Source: an uncultured Bacteroidales bacterium (GTDB lineage: Bacteria; Bacteroidota; Bacteroidia; Bacteroidales; UBA1715). From it: DNA of 64,000 nucleotides. The DNA lies in NCBI GenBank assembly GCA_937892155.1, contig CALAUG010000060.1, positions 3,931 to 67,930 on the forward strand, given 5' to 3'. The stretch's first letter is position 1. Each line of letters begins with the position of its first letter. Positions 1,243 to 10,561 of this stretch are shown here, in pieces. Under the pieces are notes generated by a model. That model was not told the DNA's origin and did no database searches. It worked only from the letters and a program-made list of their open reading frames with translations. Made by a program: the position numbers and the translations under genes.

Positions 1243-2283
1243 TTAGTCTGTTTTATACGTACCATTTTTCCCCTTTGCCAACATTTTCACGTTATTAATC
1301 TCTTTCACAAGTTGCTCCGTGGTTGGAAGATAAAGTTTATACTCGCTCGTAAGAATCGTTTGATTATTTTCGGGCAATGCCATTTTTACGACAGTATCGT
1401 TTTTGTCCGTACATAACAATATGCCTATTGAAGGATTTTCATCGGGTAATTTTTCAGTACGGTCGTAGTAGTTCACATACATTTGTAATTGACCTAAATC
1501 CTGATGAGTGAGTTTACCCGTCTTGAGTTCAACAATGACAAAGCATTTTAATAATCGATTATAAAAAACAAGGTCAACAAAGAATTCATCATCTTCCAAA
1601 AGAATGCGTTTTTGCCGTGCAACAAAAGTGAATCCATTGCCCATTTCCAAAAGGAAATCCGTAATATGTGTGATGATAGTACTTTCAAAGTCTTTTTCGT
1701 AATAGGATGGTTTACAATCCAAACCCAAGAATTCCAACACCATAGGGTCTTTTATAATTTCTTGTGGTGTTTCTGGAATCCTTTCCTTGCGTGCCACAGC
1801 AAGTACTGCTTCTTTGTCGTTACTTAACAAAAGCCGTTCATACAATTGGCTGTTGATCTGACGTTCCGTCTCTCGTGCCGTCCATGCATGATTCACCGAT
1901 TCCAACTCGTAATATTCCCGTTTGTCGGGATCATCAATGGAAATCAACAATTTATATTGACTCCAGTTTAATTGCGTCCGCACTGTGGACGCAATTGGGT
2001 AAATTCGATAAAATTGTCTTGCTCGTTCCAGTTGTCGCACGCCAAATCCGCTTCCATATTCGGCTTCCAAATTTTCGGCAAGAGTTCTGACAATATATGC
2101 ACCATAATCGGCTCTATCCTTCCCTTGTTGTTCTTCCTCAAATATCCTTCTGCCTAAGTTCCAATACATTTGTACACGGCAGAAATCAACACTTCGTACA
2201 GCGTTTGCTCGAGCATTTTCAATAATTGTTCGAGCGTCTTCAATCAATGCGTTTTGTGGCATTTTACCATGATTAGTTTTCAT
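1243..2283 (-). CDS. PDDEXK nuclease domain protein, YhcG/DUF1016 family
   Basis: 346 aa. The N-terminal signature (ARANAVRSVDFCRVQMYWNLGRRI...YGAYIVRTLAENLEAEYGSGFGVRQLERARQFYRIYP) and the C-terminal D...ELK nuclease core (FFVDLVFYNRLLKCFVIVELKTGK) are typical of the DUF1016 family. Confidence 0.85.
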   Translation of the reverse strand: MKTNHGKMPQNALIEDARTIIENARANAVRSVDFCRVQMYWNLGRRIFEEEQQGKDRADYGAYIVRTLAENLEAEYGSGFGVRQLERARQFYRIYPIASTVRTQLNWSQYKLLISIDDPDKREYYELESVNHAWTARETERQINSQLYERLLLSNDKEAVLAVARKERIPETPQEIIKDPMVLEFLGLDCKPSYYEKDFESTIITHITDFLLEMGNGFTFVARQKRILLEDDEFFVDLVFYNRLLKCFVIVELKTGKLTHQDLGQLQMYVNYYDRTEKLPDENPSIGILLCTDKNDTVVKMALPENNQTILTSEYKLYLPTTEQLVKEINNVKMLAKGKNGTYKTD

Positions 2284-2961: not shown

Positions 2962-3327
2962 TTAAACTCCAAGAACAATATTTGCATCAATGTCCATTTC
3001 CTTACAAATTTTTCGTGCAACTTGCAAAGTCGGCTCGCAACGACCATTAAAAATATCACTAATGCGAGAAGTGCTAACGCCCAACAATTTAGCCAAACGC
3101 ACTTGATTAAGCCCCATTTCGTACATACGAAGTTTCATAACATCAACCAATTGCGGTGATTTAATCGGGAAATGTTCATCTTCGTATTCGGCAACCATTT
3201 CCGAAAGCAAATCCAATTCAACAGAATTCTTATCGGTAAGAGGGGTCTCGTCCGTCACCAATGGTAACAGTTCTTCAATACGTGCCATAGTTGCTTCGTA
3301 AGCCTCTTTTGTCTTAATTCTTGTCAT
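2962..3327 (-). CDS. higA: HigA-type antitoxin / XRE-family HTH regulator
   Basis: 121 aa. The C-terminal HTH (MGLNQVRLAKLLGVSTSRISDIFNGRCEPTLQVARKICKEM) sits directly downstream of a HigB-like toxin gene. Confidence 0.8.
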   Translation of the reverse strand: MTRIKTKEAYEATMARIEELLPLVTDETPLTDKNSVELDLLSEMVAEYEDEHFPIKSPQLVDVMKLRMYEMGLNQVRLAKLLGVSTSRISDIFNGRCEPTLQVARKICKEMDIDANIVLGV

Positions 3328-3335
3328 AACACCTC

Positions 3336-3629
3336 CTATATATTTTTTGCATCAATCGTATCGTATTCAGCATGTGTTCCTATAAAACGAATCAACACCA
3401 ATCCAATCGTGAATTTAATCACCACAATCAAACGATAGTTATTCCCTCTTATATTGAACACATAATGTTGATTACCAACGGCATCGACTGTCCGAAAAGT
3501 TTTCTTTATATCATCAAAGCAATACCATTCTGCGTTTGCCGTCTTTTTATACCAGTCTTCCAAAGCGGTTTCCGCATCGGGATGTTTGGTATAATACTCT
3601 ATTATTTTACTGCGTGCTATAATTCTCAT
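3336..3629 (-). CDS. higB: type II toxin-antitoxin system HigB-family toxin (RelE-like mRNA interferase)
   Basis: 97 aa. The sequence MRIIARSKIIEYYTKHPDAETALEDWYKKTANAEW...NNYRLIVVIKF...IRFIGTHAEYD fits the HigB toxin family pattern, and the toxin-first gene order is typical of higBA. Confidence 0.85.
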   Translation of the reverse strand: MRIIARSKIIEYYTKHPDAETALEDWYKKTANAEWYCFDDIKKTFRTVDAVGNQHYVFNIRGNNYRLIVVIKFTIGLVLIRFIGTHAEYDTIDAKNI

Positions 3630-3743: not shown

Positions 3744-4832
3744 TTAAATTTGATTTAATTTTTCTTTTATCTCTTTTAATTCCACGACAATACCATCCAC
3801 AACCTCACCATTGTATTCTTTGAAAGTTTTTGTTCCCAGCCACACGTCATTGTTCACAATATCATAGCCATACTGTTTTAATATGTTTCTAATTTCATCA
3901 GCATAAGAATAACTATTGGTGGAATATTTCCCCTTGTAATTTTTATGTCTGATGGCAACATAACCAGGTTTTGTGTGAGAAACTGTAAATTCAAGATCAT
4001 TTGTTAATTCATAATGTTCTGATTTATTATTATACATTTTAAAAACATTACGATTTTTAAATGTATCTGCGATTTCTTTATTATTTACAGACATTATTGA
4101 GGCTTTAGATTTTCGATTTTGAAATGCTTCTATATACATGCTTAAAGATCTAACAAAATCATCTTTTGACATTTTTGGGGTTTCCGTCAATAATTTTATA
4201 CCATGAGCTACTAAATCCATTTCTTCATGAGTATAAAGTTTACTAGTATGGGGAATTCCAATCAATAATGTATTATCAACCCATGATCTAAATATTTCAC
4301 CAGGAATCATGCATTCAATAGAGCATGCATAATTTTCACAAATTGTGTTTATAGAATCTTTACCTAAACAGAGCATAATCTTAGGAGACAACGCCCTTAT
4401 GAAGCCTTTAGTTACATTTGCACAATCATCAAAAGCCTTGCGAGGAAGATTTGATATTTTGGGAGTATCTAACCAAACAACATTGGACCACACATACCTT
4501 TTTTCATCATTTATTATGTCCCCCATTTGAACTCTAGAAAGAATAGAATTCAATAGTCTCCACATTCTCCATTTTCTATGGTCTGCATAATAAGGATTTC
4601 CTGAAAGAAAAGTCTCTATATCCACATGACCTTTGTATACTCCACCAGAACCTGGATTTAATCCCATCACCAACAACTCTGGTGTACTTGTAACATTTCG
4701 TAAATTTGATTGTGTATAAAAATTATTTTGATACTTATCCCCCAATTCATTATAGATTTCTAAGGCACCTTTATTTGATTGAGTTCCCAATGCCCACTCT
4801 CTTATTTTTTCCTGAATACTGTTTTCGTTCAT
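3744..4832 (-). CDS. uracil-DNA-glycosylase-fold protein (MUG/TDG-like GLNPG motif) with an extra C-terminal domain of unknown function
   Basis: 362 aa with the UDG-fold elements in order: LLVMGLNPGSGG (aa 53-64, motif A), VWSNVVW (aa 114-120), KIMLCLGKDS (aa 151-160) and LLIGIPHTSKLY (aa 189-200, motif-B-like His). About 130 aa of unassigned C-terminal sequence follow. The start is 5 nt after the upstream stop. Confidence 0.6.
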   Translation of the reverse strand: MNENSIQEKIREWALGTQSNKGALEIYNELGDKYQNNFYTQSNLRNVTSTPELLVMGLNPGSGGVYKGHVDIETFLSGNPYYADHRKWRMWRLLNSILSRVQMGDIINDEKRYVWSNVVWLDTPKISNLPRKAFDDCANVTKGFIRALSPKIMLCLGKDSINTICENYACSIECMIPGEIFRSWVDNTLLIGIPHTSKLYTHEEMDLVAHGIKLLTETPKMSKDDFVRSLSMYIEAFQNRKSKASIMSVNNKEIADTFKNRNVFKMYNNKSEHYELTNDLEFTVSHTKPGYVAIRHKNYKGKYSTNSYSYADEIRNILKQYGYDIVNNDVWLGTKTFKEYNGEVVDGIVVELKEIKEKLNQI

Positions 4833-4837
4833 ATCTT

Positions 4838-5395
4838 TTATTTATAATTTTCAAATATAAAATTATTCTTTATAACAACATAACTGATTCTCGTAGGGAT
4901 AGTTTCTCCATTAAAATAGTTAAAGTAGTTAAACAAAAAGTCCACACACTTTGGAAAACTTGCCCGTATCGTATCCATAATTTGTATTCCTTCTTCCCAA
5001 TCTCCTTGATCTTCAGAATTACGTATGACCACTATCATTCGACAATTTTCTTTCAATAAATTTTCAGGTATGGCATCAATAATGGTTTGTGCCACAGAAT
5101 TCCCTGTTGCGACACCTATAAAATCTGCTTTGTGACATACAGAAGAATCACCAAGAAGGAATCGTTTCACATCTAGATAATCCATATCCACAAGACCTAT
5201 TTTTGTCGCACAATACCATATATCATCTGCTATGATTTTTTTTATAGGATCAGAAATTGCCTCAAAATCATTTTCTCCTAATACGCAAGCAATCATTGGC
5301 TTTAAGGCATTTAAGACCTGATCTTCATTTTTATCTGTTTCACCTTCAATTAAATCCAACCGATTTTCGTGTTCTATTTTGTCCATGGTTTTCAA
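4838..5395 (-). CDS. FtsZ/tubulin C-terminal-domain-like protein lacking the GTP-binding domain
   Basis: 185 aa. GLVDMDYLDVKRFL resembles the FtsZ T7 loop/H8 segment GLMNVDFADVRTVM, GVATGNSVAQTIIDAI resembles GVASGEDRAEEAAEMAI, DTIRASF resembles NTIRAFA, and RISYVVI resembles RVTVVAT (E. coli FtsZ recalled from memory). There is no GGGTG(S/T)G signature. The start may be 5395, 5386 or 5296; the first two overlap the upstream AAA gene. Confidence 0.5.
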   Translation of the reverse strand: MKTMDKIEHENRLDLIEGETDKNEDQVLNALKPMIACVLGENDFEAISDPIKKIIADDIWYCATKIGLVDMDYLDVKRFLLGDSSVCHKADFIGVATGNSVAQTIIDAIPENLLKENCRMIVVIRNSEDQGDWEEGIQIMDTIRASFPKCVDFLFNYFNYFNGETIPTRISYVVIKNNFIFENYK

Positions 5396-6485
5396 TATTA
5401 TAGTTAAAAATTTCGGCTAAAGTCATAGGTTCAAAATCACCATCAACGTGATATTGTTTGTGCATCAACGCAGTTGTTTTTTCCTTGGTAAGTTTACCAA
5501 ATTCGTACTTATCTGTCAAGCGACCTTTACGAAGTAATGCTTTATCAATTCGTTGCACGTTGCTATTGAATGTACAGATGAATTTGAGGTTGAGACTGTC
5601 GCCCAACAAACCGTCTGCCATATTCAAAATATTTACCAAACCCGTATTTACGCAATTATACGAATCGCTGCGATCGACAAGCAACTGCTCGCAATCTTCA
5701 ATTACAACTACAGCATCTTTCAGTTCGTTGCAAATAAATGTTATCATTCGAGGATCGGACATACCCGACGCCATATCAAGAGGTAGATATACAAAATGTT
5801 TATTCGTAACAGAAATTAAGTGTCGGATATATGATGTTTTACCAGTGCCTTGTTCTCCGTGCAAAATCACCAAGCCGTTCTTGTCTGTTTCTAAAAATGA
5901 ACGAATATTCGCATCGACTGGTACAAAATCATCGTTATACAGCAAACTGATATCCATATCAGCGATAGGTTTTATCGCCATATCTTTTAGATAATATCGT
6001 CTATCATCAAAACCAATACATTCAATTTTTGATTTCTGAGTGTGAGACTTTTTACAAAAAATATGGAATGCATTGATGAACGATTCGCACCATTTCTTGC
6101 TTTTTGCATTTTGCAGTTCATACACACACATCACAGCATTGTATTCTAGAAAAACGAATATTTGTTTTTCTGTATTCTCAAAGAAATGATAGGTATTTCC
6201 ATATTGCCATAACTTGTTATTGGATAAAGAAATTTTTCCATCTCCTTCATTTGCATCAGATTCTTCTACCGAATTGATATGTTCGAACCCAGCTTTTTTT
6301 AGTGTATTAAACAGACAAGAAACATCTGCATTATCATCACCTTCAAATTCATAATTGTATTTAAAGCTCGAAGGGATTTTACCATATTGCAAAGCAAATA
6401 ACTTTTGGGCGAAACAATAACAATCTCCATATCTTTCAGATACAAATAGTCGTGTGCTGTTTTCTTTAATTATGTTTTCTTTCAT
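5346..6485 (-). CDS. classical-clade AAA+ ATPase (BCS1-like) with an unassigned ~200-aa N-terminal domain
   Basis: Walker A GEQGTGKTS, Walker B VVVIEDCE (ED as in BCS1), sensor-1 CTFNS, and Arg-finger region DKALLRKGRLTDKYEF. The start is placed at MKENIIKEN (6485); the track start 6533 adds 16 implausible residues. Confidence 0.85.
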   Translation of the reverse strand: MKENIIKENSTRLFVSERYGDCYCFAQKLFALQYGKIPSSFKYNYEFEGDDNADVSCLFNTLKKAGFEHINSVEESDANEGDGKISLSNNKLWQYGNTYHFFENTEKQIFVFLEYNAVMCVYELQNAKSKKWCESFINAFHIFCKKSHTQKSKIECIGFDDRRYYLKDMAIKPIADMDISLLYNDDFVPVDANIRSFLETDKNGLVILHGEQGTGKTSYIRHLISVTNKHFVYLPLDMASGMSDPRMITFICNELKDAVVVIEDCEQLLVDRSDSYNCVNTGLVNILNMADGLLGDSLNLKFICTFNSNVQRIDKALLRKGRLTDKYEFGKLTKEKTTALMHKQYHVDGDFEPMTLAEIFNYNIENHGQNRTRKSVGFN

Positions 6486-6559
6486 TGTATTTACATTTAG
6501 TATTTTCCACAAAAGAAAATATAGCTTAGGCAAAAAACTTGCACAGCAAAATGTTTTTC

Positions 6560-6596
6560 AAAAAAAATCCCCAACCTCGGGAGAGATTTGGGGGAA
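6560..6596 (-). terminator. putative rho-independent terminator after the 260-aa UDG-like gene
   Basis: The minus strand reads CCCCAAATCTC-TCCC-GAGGTTGGGG followed by ATTTTTTTTG, 24 nt downstream of the stop at 6621. Confidence 0.5.
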
Positions 6597-6620
6597 ATTC
6601 CTTTTATGCGAGAAAATCTA

Positions 6621-7403
6621 TCATACGTTAAAGGAGAGTCTTAACTGTTTTATTCGATCTATCAACGGGGAATAATAGCTCTTATCAAAGTTTTTTCTTA
6701 CTGCAGCAAAATGCCACATATCAAACAATGGTATTTCTTTATCATCTCCTACCTTTAAATTATAACTACTAACATCTTCTCCATATAAATAATCAGAATA
6801 CTCCCCTAACACTTCAATTTTTTCTGCGCCAAAGTTCATAGTAATGATTACATCTGGATCAAGCAACTCTATCTCTTTATTATAGAAATTGCATTTTTCA
6901 TTTTTTGATGCCAAAACAAAACGATTTATTAAGTTCCAATCGGACTTCCACCCCCCACTCTCATTACTGAATTTAGAGAGATTCATAAAGGCAAAACTAA
7001 CACCCTTGTTTGTAGCAAAATCATCTGCGATTTCTGATGCCCGCGGCATATCATGATAACATTTACACTCTGGTTGATGCAACAAACCATATGTTATATA
7101 GAACATTCTATTATGAGTGTTAGCTCTATTCAAAGGAATCTTACCAATTTGTTTATATTCCTTATAAGCAGGATACATTACATCTATAAAATTTTCACCA
7201 TTTAATCCCAAGCATTCCCTCCCGACAAACAGAATCTTTATTTTTTGGTTGGTATAATATGGATAAAAGCCATCCTCTACAAAGTATTTAACAGGTGCAG
7301 TATTATCATTAGAAACAATTGACGATTTCCATTCATCAAACAACATCTCTAACTTATGCTGTAAATCTTTTTCCGTTTGCAAGGTATATATATCTAATTC
7401 CAT
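6621..7403 (-). CDS. divergent uracil-DNA-glycosylase-fold-like protein
   Basis: 260 aa with the order and spacing of UDG-fold elements: KILFVGRECLG (aa 55-66), FAFMNLSKFSN (aa 137-147), DVIITMNFGAEK (aa 184-195) and LFDMWHFAAV (aa 226-235). The motifs are degenerate, so the assignment is tentative. Confidence 0.4.
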   Translation of the reverse strand: MELDIYTLQTEKDLQHKLEMLFDEWKSSIVSNDNTAPVKYFVEDGFYPYYTNQKIKILFVGRECLGLNGENFIDVMYPAYKEYKQIGKIPLNRANTHNRMFYITYGLLHQPECKCYHDMPRASEIADDFATNKGVSFAFMNLSKFSNESGGWKSDWNLINRFVLASKNEKCNFYNKEIELLDPDVIITMNFGAEKIEVLGEYSDYLYGEDVSSYNLKVGDDKEIPLFDMWHFAAVRKNFDKSYYSPLIDRIKQLRLSFNV

Positions 7404-7446
7404 AATAAAAACACTTTATCCGTGTCGTGCGCAACGTTGATTATTA

Positions 7447-8100
7447 TTAACAAATATTATATATACAATCAAATTCTTTACAAAACAGACTTGCTCCTCC
7501 ATGAGATGGATGACGAACATATCTAACATTAGGGAACAGAGGTTTTAACACTCGCTCTGCTGTTTTCCCTACAGCATATACTTCTTTTATGTTAAAATAT
7601 TCCAATAAATTCTGAAGAATTTTCAATCCATATTCACATTCTTTTTTTGAAGGTGTTCTATTAGGGCGTAACGACGAAATCACTACCGTAGAATCAACAG
7701 TACTTGGATGGAAAGGGAATATGTTCCACATTAATGGATATTCTTTTATTGGAATTTTATTTAAACATTTCCACACAACCTGAGCTGTTGATTCTTTTTC
7801 GGGAATAAAATCAGGAATATCACTCATACAATAATCCAATCCTTCAAAAAAATTATTTTTCATTATAGTATATTCATCCGTAAATGGAACGCCAGAAATA
7901 AAACACCCTTTATGTCCTGGAGCCTCTCCAACAAATAATTTAGTAGGATTTATCTCTTGCATTTTCCTCAAATATTTTCTTAAATCTCGTCTGCGTTGAA
8001 CAGCAGCCATAGAATCTCCCTTATAGATATTAAGACTATTCTGTGTCGGAGGGTTTAAATCCTTAATATCAAGTATAAATTTTTCAACTTTTTCTATCAT
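7447..8100 (-). CDS. uracil-DNA glycosylase family protein (family-4-like GEAPG / HPS motifs)
   Basis: 217 aa with LFVGEAPGHKGCFISGVPFT (motif A with family-4 spacing to GxPF), MWNIFPFHPS, VYAVGKTA and VRHPSHGG (motif B). Confidence 0.75.
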   Translation of the reverse strand: MIEKVEKFILDIKDLNPPTQNSLNIYKGDSMAAVQRRRDLRKYLRKMQEINPTKLFVGEAPGHKGCFISGVPFTDEYTIMKNNFFEGLDYCMSDIPDFIPEKESTAQVVWKCLNKIPIKEYPLMWNIFPFHPSTVDSTVVISSLRPNRTPSKKECEYGLKILQNLLEYFNIKEVYAVGKTAERVLKPLFPNVRYVRHPSHGGASLFCKEFDCIYNIC

Positions 8101-8269
8101 GATAAATTATAATTTTATTTGTCACTCAAAACCATAACTCCTGCAAAATCAGAGAACTTTTGCTTAGTTAATGATAAATCCACCAAGATTTCCCTTTGTT
8201 ATGCAATAGCTTTAAAAACATTTATCGGTCTTTGATACCGCAACGACCGATGTGGTCTTTTATTATTAT

Positions 8270-8899
8270 AAAAATAGATTTAGTCTGTGCACATTTTTTT
8301 TTATTTGACCACAAAGGTAATAGAAAATCCAATCCTTTACAATCCTTTCAAATATTCTTCCACTATTGGATAAATAGCAGTTTTTAAACAATTCTATATC
8401 AACATAATAATCAAAATCTTTATGTTTATCGATCCAATATCTATTATTGGTTTTTATTGCGTAAAATTCTTACATTGTTCGTGCAAAACATTCACATGTT
8501 CTGCCTCTATATCTCCTTCTATTTTCTGGGACAGGATTCATATTATTTCTAAACAATTCTGCCAAAACACGTTCCTTCGAACCAGGTATTGAAGATGCAT
8601 TTTTATAGCGTGATTCTTCTATTGTTCGAATTCAATCAAGGAAATGTGCCAATTCGTGAACAAATACACAATCTAATATTTCGTGTATATTTTTTCTTGT
8701 GTCATACAACGAAATGGAATTCGGAGAAAAATCACCAAGTTTCCTACGGTTTCATTTGTCATTCAAAAACAAATCTAATCATATTGTAGTATGGTATCTG
8801 TCATACATTTGCCATAGAACAAAATCGCTTTTGACAAGCATGCCTCAAATCTTCGTACTGCAAATTATTTTGCAACCATAGATCAATTTCTTTCATCAT
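8270..8899 (-). pseudogene. decayed HExxH zinc-metallopeptidase-like gene (SprT/ImmA/DUF45-like), multiple frame disruptions
   Basis: Minus-strand fragments lie in three frames: MMKEIDLWLQNNLQYEDLRHACQKRFCSMANV-stop, EILDCVFVHELAHFLD-stop (HExxH), IRTIEESRYKNASSIPGSKERVLAELFRNNMNPVPENRRRYRGRTCECFARTM-stop, and YWIDKHKDFDYYVDIELFKN.... No intact ORF of 60 aa or more is present on that strand. Confidence 0.4.
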
Positions 8900-8980
8900 C
8901 TGTAATTTTAAAAGTTCTTTTCGACAAAAGAAAAGCACTACTGTGCAAAAATTTGGTAGAGCCCCCAAAATAATTTGTGA

Positions 8981-9028
8981 TAAAAGAGTAAAAAAAAGAG
9001 TAACCTCTTTTTCTGAGATTACTCTTTT
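8981..9028 (-). terminator. putative rho-independent terminator downstream of the glutamine synthetase gene
   Basis: The minus strand reads AAAAGAGTAA-(15 nt loop)-TTACTCTTTT followed by TTTTACTCTTTTA, about 30 nt after the stop at 9059. Confidence 0.5.
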
Positions 9029-9058
9029 CAGTTATTAATTCGAATTTCTAATTAATCA

Positions 9059-10561
9059 CTATCCGTTGTTAATGCACTTCTCAACAAGTTCCATCAACGC
9101 TTTGTTGTCTAATGAAGCACGAAGTTTTTCGTCGTCGAAAGCCTTCAAGTAGCCAATCATAAAGTCAACTATATTGTCGGAGAAGACACCTTTTGAAGTG
9201 TAGATTTCACGATCCTTTTGAAGTTCTGCAGCAGCTTCTACGCAACAACCAGGAAGTTGTTCCAAAGCTTCTTGCACAGCTTTGTTCTTTTCGTCGTGGA
9301 TATTTACACCTAAACCAACGAATGTTTTTTCTGCAACTTCCAAACCATTAGGAATTTCAAATCCGTGACGTGCAGCGCAGCAAAGAGCAGCCATCAACAA
9401 ATACATATCGGCGAAAGCATCCGATGCTCTCCATTCAAATGTTTGTTTGTCGCTGAAATCTTTGTTTGAAGCTTTTTCGTTCGGATTTGTCGAAGCAGCC
9501 ATATCCATTTGTTTTAACCAGCCAAGTGGCACACGAACCAATGCACTTCTGTTCGAGAACGACCAGCACAATGATGTAGGTGCTTCTTGATGAGGAACAA
9601 GACGCATAAATGAAAGTGGATGTGGATTACCGAATGCAGGCAATGAAGTTCCTGCAACCATATATCCTGCGATTGCTTTCTTAGCTTCGTCTGTCAATTC
9701 ACCATTTTTAGTCATAACCGACTTGCCATCTTTTGTAAATTTACAGTGAACATGCATACCGCTTCCTGCTTTTCCTACAGTGATTTTTGGTGCAAATGTC
9801 AATGTTACGCCATAGTTGTAGGCAACCTGACGCATTACCCATTTTGCAACAACTAATTGGTCTGCTGCATCTTCGATATTTGTAGGCAAGAATTCTATTT
9901 CATTTTGTTCGTAGATTTTACCGTCTTGTGTAAAGTTACCAACTTCAGAGTGACCGTATTTAATCAAACCACCACATTGAGCAATCATTTCCATTGCTTC
10001 CATACGCAAATCCATGAATTTGTTGAATGGAGCGCTTTCGTGATAACCTTTTTGGTCTGGAGTTTCGTAAATACATTCATCCTCGGCAATCACATAATAC
10101 TCAAGTTCACCCATAGTTTCCATTTCAAGACCAGTAGTTGCCTTGAATTCTTTTGCAGCTTTATGCAAAATGTATTGTGGACTGCTTTCGAATGGTTCTC
10201 CATCGCGATTGAAGAACGAGCACAACAAATCAACTGTTGGCAATTCATTGAATGGATTCAAGAAAGCTGTTTTATAACGAGGAACAACATACAAGTCGCT
10301 CTTTCCTGCTTCAATAAAAGGGAAGAGACTAGAACCGTCAACACGTTCGCCAGCGGCCAAAATGTTTTCCAGATGTTCAACACTATGGATTACGAAATTC
10401 AACGTTTTTAACTTGCCGTCCCAACCACAATAGTGGAAATTGATGAAACGGATATCGTTTTCAGAACAGTATTTTACGATATCTGCTCTTGTAAATTCAC
10501 TTGCTGGTTTCTGTAAATACTGAACCAACTTGTTGGGATTCATTGCAATGGATTTGTCCAT
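9059..10561 (-). CDS. glnA: glutamine synthetase (500-aa GlnA-family enzyme)
   Basis: 500 aa with an N-terminal beta-grasp region and a catalytic-domain pattern (GSGMHVHCKF, NRSALVRVP-like segment) typical of glutamine synthetases. Confidence 0.85.
   Translation of the reverse strand: MDKSIAMNPNKLVQYLQKPASEFTRADIVKYCSENDIRFINFHYCGWDGKLKTLNFVIHSVEHLENILAAGERVDGSSLFPFIEAGKSDLYVVPRYKTAFLNPFNELPTVDLLCSFFNRDGEPFESSPQYILHKAAKEFKATTGLEMETMGELEYYVIAEDECIYETPDQKGYHESAPFNKFMDLRMEAMEMIAQCGGLIKYGHSEVGNFTQDGKIYEQNEIEFLPTNIEDAADQLVVAKWVMRQVAYNYGVTLTFAPKITVGKAGSGMHVHCKFTKDGKSVMTKNGELTDEAKKAIAGYMVAGTSLPAFGNPHPLSFMRLVPHQEAPTSLCWSFSNRSALVRVPLGWLKQMDMAASTNPNEKASNKDFSDKQTFEWRASDAFADMYLLMAALCCAARHGFEIPNGLEVAEKTFVGLGVNIHDEKNKAVQEALEQLPGCCVEAAAELQKDREIYTSKGVFSDNIVDFMIGYLKAFDDEKLRASLDNKALMELVEKCINNG

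Follow-up and report, generated by a model that had tools for sequence, protein, structure and literature searches.

Positions 3744 to 8100 of a 64,000-nucleotide (nt) stretch of contig CALAUG010000060.1, from an uncultured Bacteroidales bacterium, carry five open reading frames (ORFs), here named A to E, which follow one another on the minus strand; the whole stretch is called the window below. In this study, we report that this segment lies in a defence island, and we interpret it, with a probability of roughly 0.55, as a part of that island specialised against phages with modified DNA and made up of at least three separate units, not of one five-gene system. A, B and E belong to the uracil-DNA glycosylase (UDG) superfamily or share its fold, C is a classical AAA+ ATPase and D quite probably resembles the C-terminal half of FtsZ. 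What is chiefly new here is the C-D-E cassette and, in a broader sense, the repeated occurrence of UDG-fold genes together with a truncated or split FtsZ-like protein; C-D-E looks like a previously undescribed relative of the Brig glycosylase defences. Within 2.7 kilobases (kb) the cassette joins a glycosylase with an AAA+ ATPase and an apparent FtsZ half, and a fragment of a cytoskeletal protein in an immune operon would, if true, be unexpected. A first-pass annotation, made from the letters alone, had grouped all five genes into one system. This grouping was abandoned in view of the terminator and the homology breaks between B and C, the exchangeable slot upstream of C, the lack of A-like neighbours beside B relatives and the plasmid-borne relatives of A.

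The genes C, D and E form a translationally coupled operon that moves as an intact cassette. C (5346-6485, minus strand; 379 amino acids (aa) from ATG, in an ORF extendable to a TTG at 6533) overlaps D (4838-5386, minus strand; 182 aa from ATG, 185 aa from a TTG at 5395) by 41 nt, the ATG of D lying inside C, and the ATG of E (3744-4832, minus strand; 362 aa) follows the stop codon of D after a gap of 5 nt, the same junctions that the first-pass annotation had given. Re-reading of the ORFs also bore out its five consecutive minus-strand genes, their motifs and a hairpin between B and C, a terminator-like GC hairpin with T8 (6584-6568, minus strand) that was seen in a terminator scan and in the sequence itself. 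In the sister contig L001, McrB and McrC are followed by C-D-E at 98.5% nucleotide identity, with homology limited to window positions 6571-3884, and in L084 homology to the window begins at 6602. Since these breakpoints fall at the B/C terminator, where homology to three related contigs ends, the boundary of the cassette was placed there.

Gene content upstream of C varied between contigs. The order in L084 is a 250-aa B-like protein, two GmrSD genes, a 255-aa B-like protein, C, D, E, HigB, HigA, a PLD-family nuclease, a metallophosphoesterase, a 183-aa gene, a WYL-domain gene and an RNase T gene, and in L003 two GmrSD genes stand directly upstream of C. A plus B, McrBC, GmrSD or other UDG-fold genes alternate in the slot upstream of C, and we take all of these to act on modified DNA. 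McrBC and GmrSD occupy the same island slot in the sister contigs and would target the same class of modified phage DNA as the slot glycosylases; they differ in being unrelated proteins that cut the backbone rather than excise bases. This exchange of glycosylases with type IV restriction enzymes supports the view that they are alternative answers to modified phage DNA. The stacking of glycosylase-fold genes is of the immunity type, as separate units in an exchangeable slot, and it recurs: L084 combines its 250-aa and 255-aa B-like proteins with E. The earlier argument that paralog stacking is typical of immunity loci was strengthened by this recurrence in a related island.

The A-E block belongs to the variable part of a defence island of a gut Bacteroidales bacterium. 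Its GC content is 32.5%, against 39% in the adjacent housekeeping genes (glutamine synthetase and alanine dehydrogenase). The genes downstream encode HigB/HigA, a PLD-family nuclease of small size, a PDDEXK nuclease of the YhcG type (PADLOC PDC-S02) and a metallophosphoesterase (PADLOC PDC-S10); these neighbours and the low GC content agree with the accessory, defence-type setting claimed at first.

Assignment to the UDG superfamily was judged by the gathering threshold (GA) of Pfam PF03167, by fold superposition (for B only) and by the presence of motif A after strand 1 together with motif B (H-P/T-S) close to the C-terminal end of the domain. By the Pfam profile, A scored over GA, E fell just under it with a relative from L066 over it, and B gave no Pfam match. 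When the families of A, B and E were compared by hhalign, no mutual similarity was seen beyond motif A. The earlier claim of three mutually dissimilar UDG-fold proteins therefore held, for A by Pfam, for B by its structural model and for E through the L066 relative. None of the three reached the cut-off of any NCBIfam repair-family model, and they further differ from the repair UDG families in sitting in a defence island rather than in the core genome.

Protein A (7447-8100, minus strand; 217 aa; motifs GEAPG and HPSHGG) matched Pfam UDG at E-value 8.7e-9 and 36 bits, over the GA of 24.3, and its GEAPG and HPS motifs resemble those of family 4/5 UDGs. A is a singleton cluster at 90% identity, and an exact-sequence look-up found no other contig carrying it. 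Relatives with 27-35% identity are present on 45 plasmid records, annotated as uracil-DNA glycosylase by the Prokaryotic Genome Annotation Pipeline (PGAP), in mixed contexts: one neighbours an integrase, another overlaps a MazG-like gene and a third is in a Bacteroides region of housekeeping type. A scan of viral contigs with A gave no match, a PDB sequence search was uninformative, and no A-like gene was found beside B relatives in 59 B loci. A is probably an independent unit.

Protein B (6621-7403, minus strand; 260 aa; motifs DGFYPYY, ILFvGRE, SFAFMNLSKFSNES, PDxIITMN and WHFSA) had no match in Pfam, NCBIfam, PHROGs or PADLOC. Its family comprises at least 163 homologous clusters of proteins of ~250 aa, none with a Pfam domain, and in the alignment of 43 sequences ILFVGRE (motif A) and WHF(S/A)A (motif B) were conserved. 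An AlphaFold2 model built on this alignment had a predicted local distance difference test score (pLDDT) of 93 and a predicted template-modelling score (pTM) of 0.92. Foldseek comparison of the model with the PDB returned UDG-superfamily structures for all of the top 32 matches (probability 0.6-1.0), the nearest being UdgX, human TDG, Thermotoga maritima UDG and SMUG1, with no Brig entry among them. A profile search of PDB sequences gave a weak UDG match only. In the viral library BFVD, UDGs or UDG-like domains headed the list, and 7 of the 50 top matches had a probability of at least 0.9; two were annotated UDGs, two were phage DNA polymerases with UDG-like domains and three were unnamed proteins. 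Because the model matches UDG-superfamily structures only, B is assigned, on its modelled fold, as a very divergent UDG-fold protein.

Relatives of B were located at 59 genomic loci of species genomes from Spirochaetota, Verrucomicrobiota, Bacteroidota, Planctomycetota, Pseudomonadota and other phyla. The genes immediately around them are of many kinds, among them GmrSD, McrBC, SIR2, Fic, WYL, DEDDh and integrase genes. No generally conserved partner was found across the 59 loci, most of which lack an AAA gene; the sole recurrent neighbours are WYL-domain regulators (~7 loci) and a Verrucomicrobia-specific module (~8-10 loci). A scan of viral contigs with B gave two loci, and tblastn of plasmid and phage sequences gave none. 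B is thus a member of a widespread, unannotated, stand-alone single-gene UDG-fold family, which, with its many phyla, is a candidate source of single-gene defences and of enzymes that recognise modified bases. The Verrucomicrobia module (L020, L025, L030, L036, L040, L053, L060, L062) consists of a ~330-aa protein of no known type, a C-like AAA+ ATPase and an RNase T-type exonuclease, often beside a B-family gene and a WYL regulator, with other genes such as GmrSD sometimes lying between the AAA module and B. The module seems to be a further uncharacterised defence unit that uses the same AAA family as C.

Protein E comprises an N-terminal UDG-fold domain (residues ~45-210) and a C-terminal domain of ~120 aa. 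Its relative in L066 (36-40% identity) scored 28.1 bits on Pfam UDG, over GA and in the same region. Both proteins keep the motifs GLNPGSGG and GIPHTSK, and their alignment shows conservation of both the UDG domain and the C-terminal domain. The Asn-type motif A (GLNPG) and His-type motif B (HTS) are SMUG1-like (SMUG/MUG-type). E is 99.7-100% identical in L084 and L001. A scan of metagenomes with E found the L070/L069 lineage only; tblastn of plasmid and phage sequences gave no match, and PDB sequence searches, with the single sequence and with the profile, were uninformative.

Protein D has hardly any relatives: three lineages were found among ~15 billion proteins. A word-indexed homology search returned near-identical copies only, an exhaustive search, run on 1.8 billion cluster representatives, yielded two further true relatives (P0243 and P0244), and tblastn of plasmid and phage sequences gave no match. 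Two more matches from the exhaustive search were discounted as repeat proteins. Against a 7-sequence FtsZ alignment, hhalign gave a probability of 74% and an E-value of 2.9e-5 over 119 colinear columns, pairing D 48-171 with Escherichia coli FtsZ 180-312, which spans H7, T7 and S7-S10. By Smith-Waterman alignment D scored 57 with E. coli FtsZ, a score reached by 2 of 2000 shuffles (p ~0.001); 23 control proteins had z of at most 1.9 and reversed FtsZ had z = -0.4. The aligned span was D 18-116 with FtsZ 151-251, including GLVDMDYLDVKRFL against GLMNVDFADVRTVM. Around the T7 loop, GLVDMDYLDV of D pairs with GLMNVDFADV of FtsZ; D69, Y70 and D72 are invariant in the D family, and the aspartates D69 and D72 align with D209 and D212 of FtsZ. 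The predicted secondary-structure order of D also fits that of FtsZ, H7/H8-S7-H9-S8-H10-S9-S10. The GTP-binding N-domain with its G-box, GGGTG(T/S)G, is absent from D, the FtsZ alignment beginning at FtsZ residue 180. D can thus be aligned colinearly with FtsZ over H7, the T7 loop and the C-terminal domain, and differs from it in missing the whole GTP-binding domain and in having no C-terminal linker or tail.

Other results go against an FtsZ origin of D. Pfam gave no FtsZ_C or Tubulin match, and a profile search of PDB sequences with D found no FtsZ. The AlphaFold2 model, from a 4-sequence alignment, was poor (pLDDT 53), and its Foldseek matches were of the Alba/IF3-C type (beta-alpha-beta-alpha-beta-beta), not FtsZ, at non-significant E-values of 0.04-0.2. 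The profile and pairwise FtsZ statistics stem from the same 4-sequence D alignment, and one unrelated hhalign control still gave an E-value of 0.002 (12%, 45 columns); a second unrelated control gave 0.1%. Weighing both sides, we regard D as a probable FtsZ C-terminal-half-like protein on sequence grounds. The earlier description of D as FtsZ C-domain-like thus stood by hhalign, Smith-Waterman alignment and secondary-structure order, and failed by Pfam FtsZ_C, the PDB profile search and the fold search.

Residues 69-78 of D (window ~5153-5182), DYLDVKRFLL, resemble the C-terminal peptide of FtsZ, DYLDIPAFLR, which docks FtsA and ZipA. Comparison of D with single E. coli FtsZ by hhalign gave this match a probability of 3.7%, and it was treated as chance; the resemblance is probably accidental, with tail mimicry as the alternative to the T7-loop reading. 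Elsewhere, a divergent FtsZ with 34% identity to E. coli FtsZ is encoded at 572837-573931 of a 680-kb replicon, a plasmid of Pseudoalteromonas sp. HL-AS2 (L091). Its gene is flanked by those for a WYL-domain protein and a tyrosine recombinase, a setting of mobile or defence-like type.

In all three D lineages a UDG-fold gene lies within about 3.5 kb, and some P-loop NTPase stands next to D. In the P0243 lineage (L066 and L070), an E-like gene is found 2-3.7 kb downstream of the D-like gene (36% identity over residues 6-352, E-value 1e-71). The 105-kb Joint Genome Institute (JGI) metagenome contig L070 encodes at 4411-9147 the D-like protein, a 70-aa protein, an ADP-ribosylglycohydrolase (Pfam E-value 3e-70), a 103-aa protein, the E-like UDG, a 97-aa protein and a 188-aa FtsZ N-domain-like protein, so that the glycohydrolase lies upstream of the E-like gene with the 103-aa gene between, and the 188-aa protein two genes after it. 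This last protein has a degenerate G-box, LGGDDDL; it was recognised by hhalign (84%, E-value 7.9e-6) and Smith-Waterman alignment (z 7.6), with Pfam Tubulin at E-value 0.037, and its five matches among PDB sequences were every one FtsZ. The arrangement in L070 suggests the two parts of a split FtsZ on either side of a Brig-like glycosylase; tblastn with the N-domain-like protein gave no match in the window. In L066, a 546-aa protein of no known type takes the place of the ADP-ribosylglycohydrolase and a 243-aa ABC-type ATPase is inserted. In the P0244 lineage (L068), an AAA_14/DUF4143 ATPase is followed by the D-like gene and an RNase T-type exonuclease, and a distant relative of B, 260 aa long, is encoded 2.3 kb downstream of the D-like gene (hhalign 68%, E-value 5e-5; 28% identity to the 250-aa protein of L084). 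The linkage of D to UDG-fold genes is suggestive, not proof. When the earlier proposal of a recurring AAA, FtsZ-C and UDG-like neighbourhood was checked, the pairing of D with UDG-fold genes was seen in all three lineages; the AAA+ ATPase does not always accompany D and E, since D-like and E-like genes occur in the L070/L066 lineage without a C-like AAA gene.

Protein C matched Pfam AAA (PF00004) at E-value 1e-9 and 39.3 bits, against a GA of 21.2. Its translation shows a Walker A motif (GEQGTGKT), a BCS1-type (ED) Walker B motif (VVIEDCE) and an Arg finger (RKGR), and its best PDB sequence matches were AFG2, Rpt3 and BCS1 (E-values 2e-7 to 1e-5), BCS1 ranking after the other two. C resembles BCS1, AFG2 and Rpt proteins in having a single AAA module with Walker A, Walker B, sensor 1 and Arg finger; it differs from BCS1 in lacking a membrane anchor and a match to the BCS1 N-terminal domain, for which Pfam gave no hit at E-values up to 1. 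The description of C as BCS1-like AAA+ was accordingly kept for the classical AAA module and the ED-type Walker B, and dropped for the N-domain and anchor. The N-terminal ~200 residues are family-specific and highly variable. In PADLOC, matches to C were weak and only around the P-loop (residues 165-246; best E-value 1.9e-5 over 38 residues), with no match to the models for IetA and other defence ATPases.

C occurs as two alleles that are ~70% identical in DNA and lie between near-identical flanks. Across window positions 5420-6470, DNA identity to L084, L003 and L002 is 64-80%, and amino acid identity between the alleles is 50% in residues 1-100 and 91% in the ATPase part. In L084, identity in the flanks reaches 99-100% for the D and E genes and ~93% for the 5' leader. 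Diversifying selection on C was considered and rejected. With a ratio of nonsynonymous to synonymous divergence (dN/dS) of ~0.1 and a saturated dS, the alleles are old ones that recombination has swapped as whole genes, not products of recent positive selection. Homologues of C numbered 1281; a scan of viral contigs gave no match. Distant homologues form tight same-strand pairs with effector-type genes, namely a caspase-like protease (L080), a PLD (L074) and a PIF1 helicase (L077), and a further one is partnered by a second AAA together with an HU-domain protein. These varied partners suggest that the C-family NTPase can be matched with different effectors. A PLD of ~170 aa is encoded in the window at 2435-2950, and one of similar size in L074 (4370-4882) stands directly upstream of a C-like AAA with 44% identity to C.

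The closest described defences are the Brig proteins. Brig1, a UDG-superfamily defence protein, excises alpha-glucosyl-hydroxymethylcytosine, Brig2, with homologues in Bacteroidota, targets thymidine hypermodifications, and Brig3 acts on 5-hydroxymethylcytosine with the accessory glucosyl hydrolase BapA; the three are highly divergent members of the UDG superfamily, are found in defence islands or AT-rich mobile regions, often as single genes and sometimes with the accessory gene BapA, and an ADP-ribosyl glycohydrolase is reported to adjoin Brig1, its N. zhouii homologue and Brig3 (PMC11078745; bioRxiv 10.1101/2025.10.29.685425; bioRxiv 10.64898/2026.02.25.707755). The glycosylase-fold genes of the window share with these the UDG superfamily, a low-GC defence island (32.5% vs 39%) and PADLOC matches nearby. 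B is in addition a stand-alone gene with defence-type neighbours in its 59 loci, and the E-like gene of L070 has an ADP-ribosylglycohydrolase neighbour. E differs from Brig in its extra C-terminal domain of ~120 aa and in being coupled to an AAA+ ATPase and an FtsZ-like fragment. Glycosylase-based immunity, comprising Brig1-3 and the Dag glycosylases, is a recent addition to the literature (2024-2026), and the examples known so far are single genes apart from one two-gene operon. In the literature, UDG-fold defences were found to be stand-alone or two-gene (Brig1, Brig2, Brig3-BapA), none with an AAA+ ATPase or FtsZ-like protein, and no split or half FtsZ in a defence locus was found. In PADLOC-DB v2, A, B, D and E had no match and C only the weak P-loop-region matches, so that no system was called. 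These searches agree with the first impression that no described system combines such parts.

From these data we propose how the separate units might work. The first would be A, a UDG-superfamily protein of family-4/5-like type such as plasmids often carry. The second would be B, which, by analogy with Brig1, Brig2 and Brig3, may excise a non-canonical base from incoming phage DNA and leave abasic sites that would block replication. In the third, the C-D-E operon, E, with its SMUG/MUG-like motifs and extra C-terminal domain, is the likely DNA-attacking glycosylase; D would act as a truncated FtsZ-like protein retaining the acidic residues of the T7 loop; and the variable N-terminal domain of C probably sets specificity or regulation. 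More tentatively, and with distinctly less confidence than the division into units, C-D-E and the D/UDG-fold pairs of the two other lineages may represent an undescribed multi-gene immune module. Here a Brig-like glycosylase would be functionally coupled to a truncated or split FtsZ-like protein that keeps the catalytic acidic residues of its T7 loop. This protein might act as a poison of filaments made by host FtsZ or phage tubulin, or work in trans on an NTPase partner, while the AAA+ ATPase would serve as a subunit for specificity or regulation that can be exchanged.

Several observations, beside those already given for D, weigh against the interpretation of the segment as specialised defence units. 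E itself scored 22.9 bits against Pfam UDG, just under the GA of 24.3, and the template-modelling (TM) scores of B's PDB matches are low (0.33-0.50). The likeness of the glycosylase-fold proteins to Brig is drawn from fold class and gene context. The association of D with UDG-fold genes comprises three lineages only, all in islands rich in such genes. A homologue of A in Bacteroides finegoldii has a housekeeping-like context, and A may simply be a repair enzyme. The C-D-E cassette can also decay, or C stand alone: D is frameshifted in L002 and L003, E is absent in L003 and in L002 it is replaced by another gene. The frameshift arises at an A8 homopolymer inside D (5236-5243, minus strand), located by alignment and by split tblastn matches, which is 1 nt shorter in L002 and L003 and divides D into pieces of 51 aa and ~110 aa. 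Apart from this deletion D is ~97-100% identical to these contigs in DNA and 94-97% at the protein level, and the shorter tract could be phase variation, gene decay or assembly error.

Of the other explanations, the one that survives best, rather improbable as we judge it, is that C-D-E acts by abortive infection or filament poisoning: D, released or activated by the AAA+ ATPase, would cap filaments of host FtsZ or of phage/plasmid tubulin (PhuZ/TubZ), with E sensing modified DNA. FtsZ variants without one polymerisation face act as filament cappers. D would fit this part, since it aligns with FtsZ 180-312, has invariant residues aligned with D209 and D212, and would present the T7-loop face with the nucleotide-binding face missing, and the sister lineage has a separate N-domain-like half with a degenerate G-box. 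The proposal is a deduction throughout, however; it leans on the moderately supported FtsZ homology of D, the window holds no N-domain partner, and D could equally regulate E or C.

Slightly less probable again is that the genes serve DNA repair or maintenance of a mobile element (uracil or mismatch removal) and not immunity, D being an unrelated Alba/IF3-C-type nucleic-acid-binding protein. PGAP does call relatives of A uracil-DNA glycosylase, one of them beside leuS and a fragment of a G/U mismatch glycosylase, and the Foldseek matches of the D model (E-value 0.04-0.2) are of the Alba/IF3-C type. That model is too poor (pLDDT 53) and its E-values are not significant, B and E fit no curated repair-family model, and the low-GC island is full of HigBA, PLD, PDC-S02 and PDC-S10, with GmrSD/McrBC in the sister contigs. 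The least probable explanation is the single five-gene system, in which the glycosylase-fold trio would sense or excise phage bases and the AAA+/FtsZ-C pair would be a shared effector or regulator: A-E do lie tightly spaced on one strand, B relatives occur near C-like AAA ATPases in ~8 Verrucomicrobia loci and L084 again has a UDG-fold gene directly upstream of C, but a terminator and homology breakpoints separate B from C, McrBC or GmrSD can occupy the upstream slot instead, an A-like neighbour was found in 0 of 59 B loci, most of them lacking an AAA too, and genes such as GmrSD intervene between the AAA module and B in Verrucomicrobia.

Further observations concern the surroundings of the A-E block. 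HigB and HigA (window 2962-3629) match components A and B of PADLOC PD-Lambda-2; the HigA-like protein has 121 aa against the 402 positions of the component B profile, a third component was not seen there, and the two genes are probably a plain HigBA pair. The YhcG/PDDEXK gene (window 1243-2283, PDC-S02) is missing from the otherwise colinear L084, which marks an insertion or deletion between the PLD and metallophosphoesterase genes. Upstream of A, ~950 nt (8101-9058) are without a convincing ORF. Within them, a 42-nt segment (8920-8961) is 95% identical to sequence just outside the first island gene of L084, where the flanking housekeeping genes differ, and it may be an island end or a recombination site.

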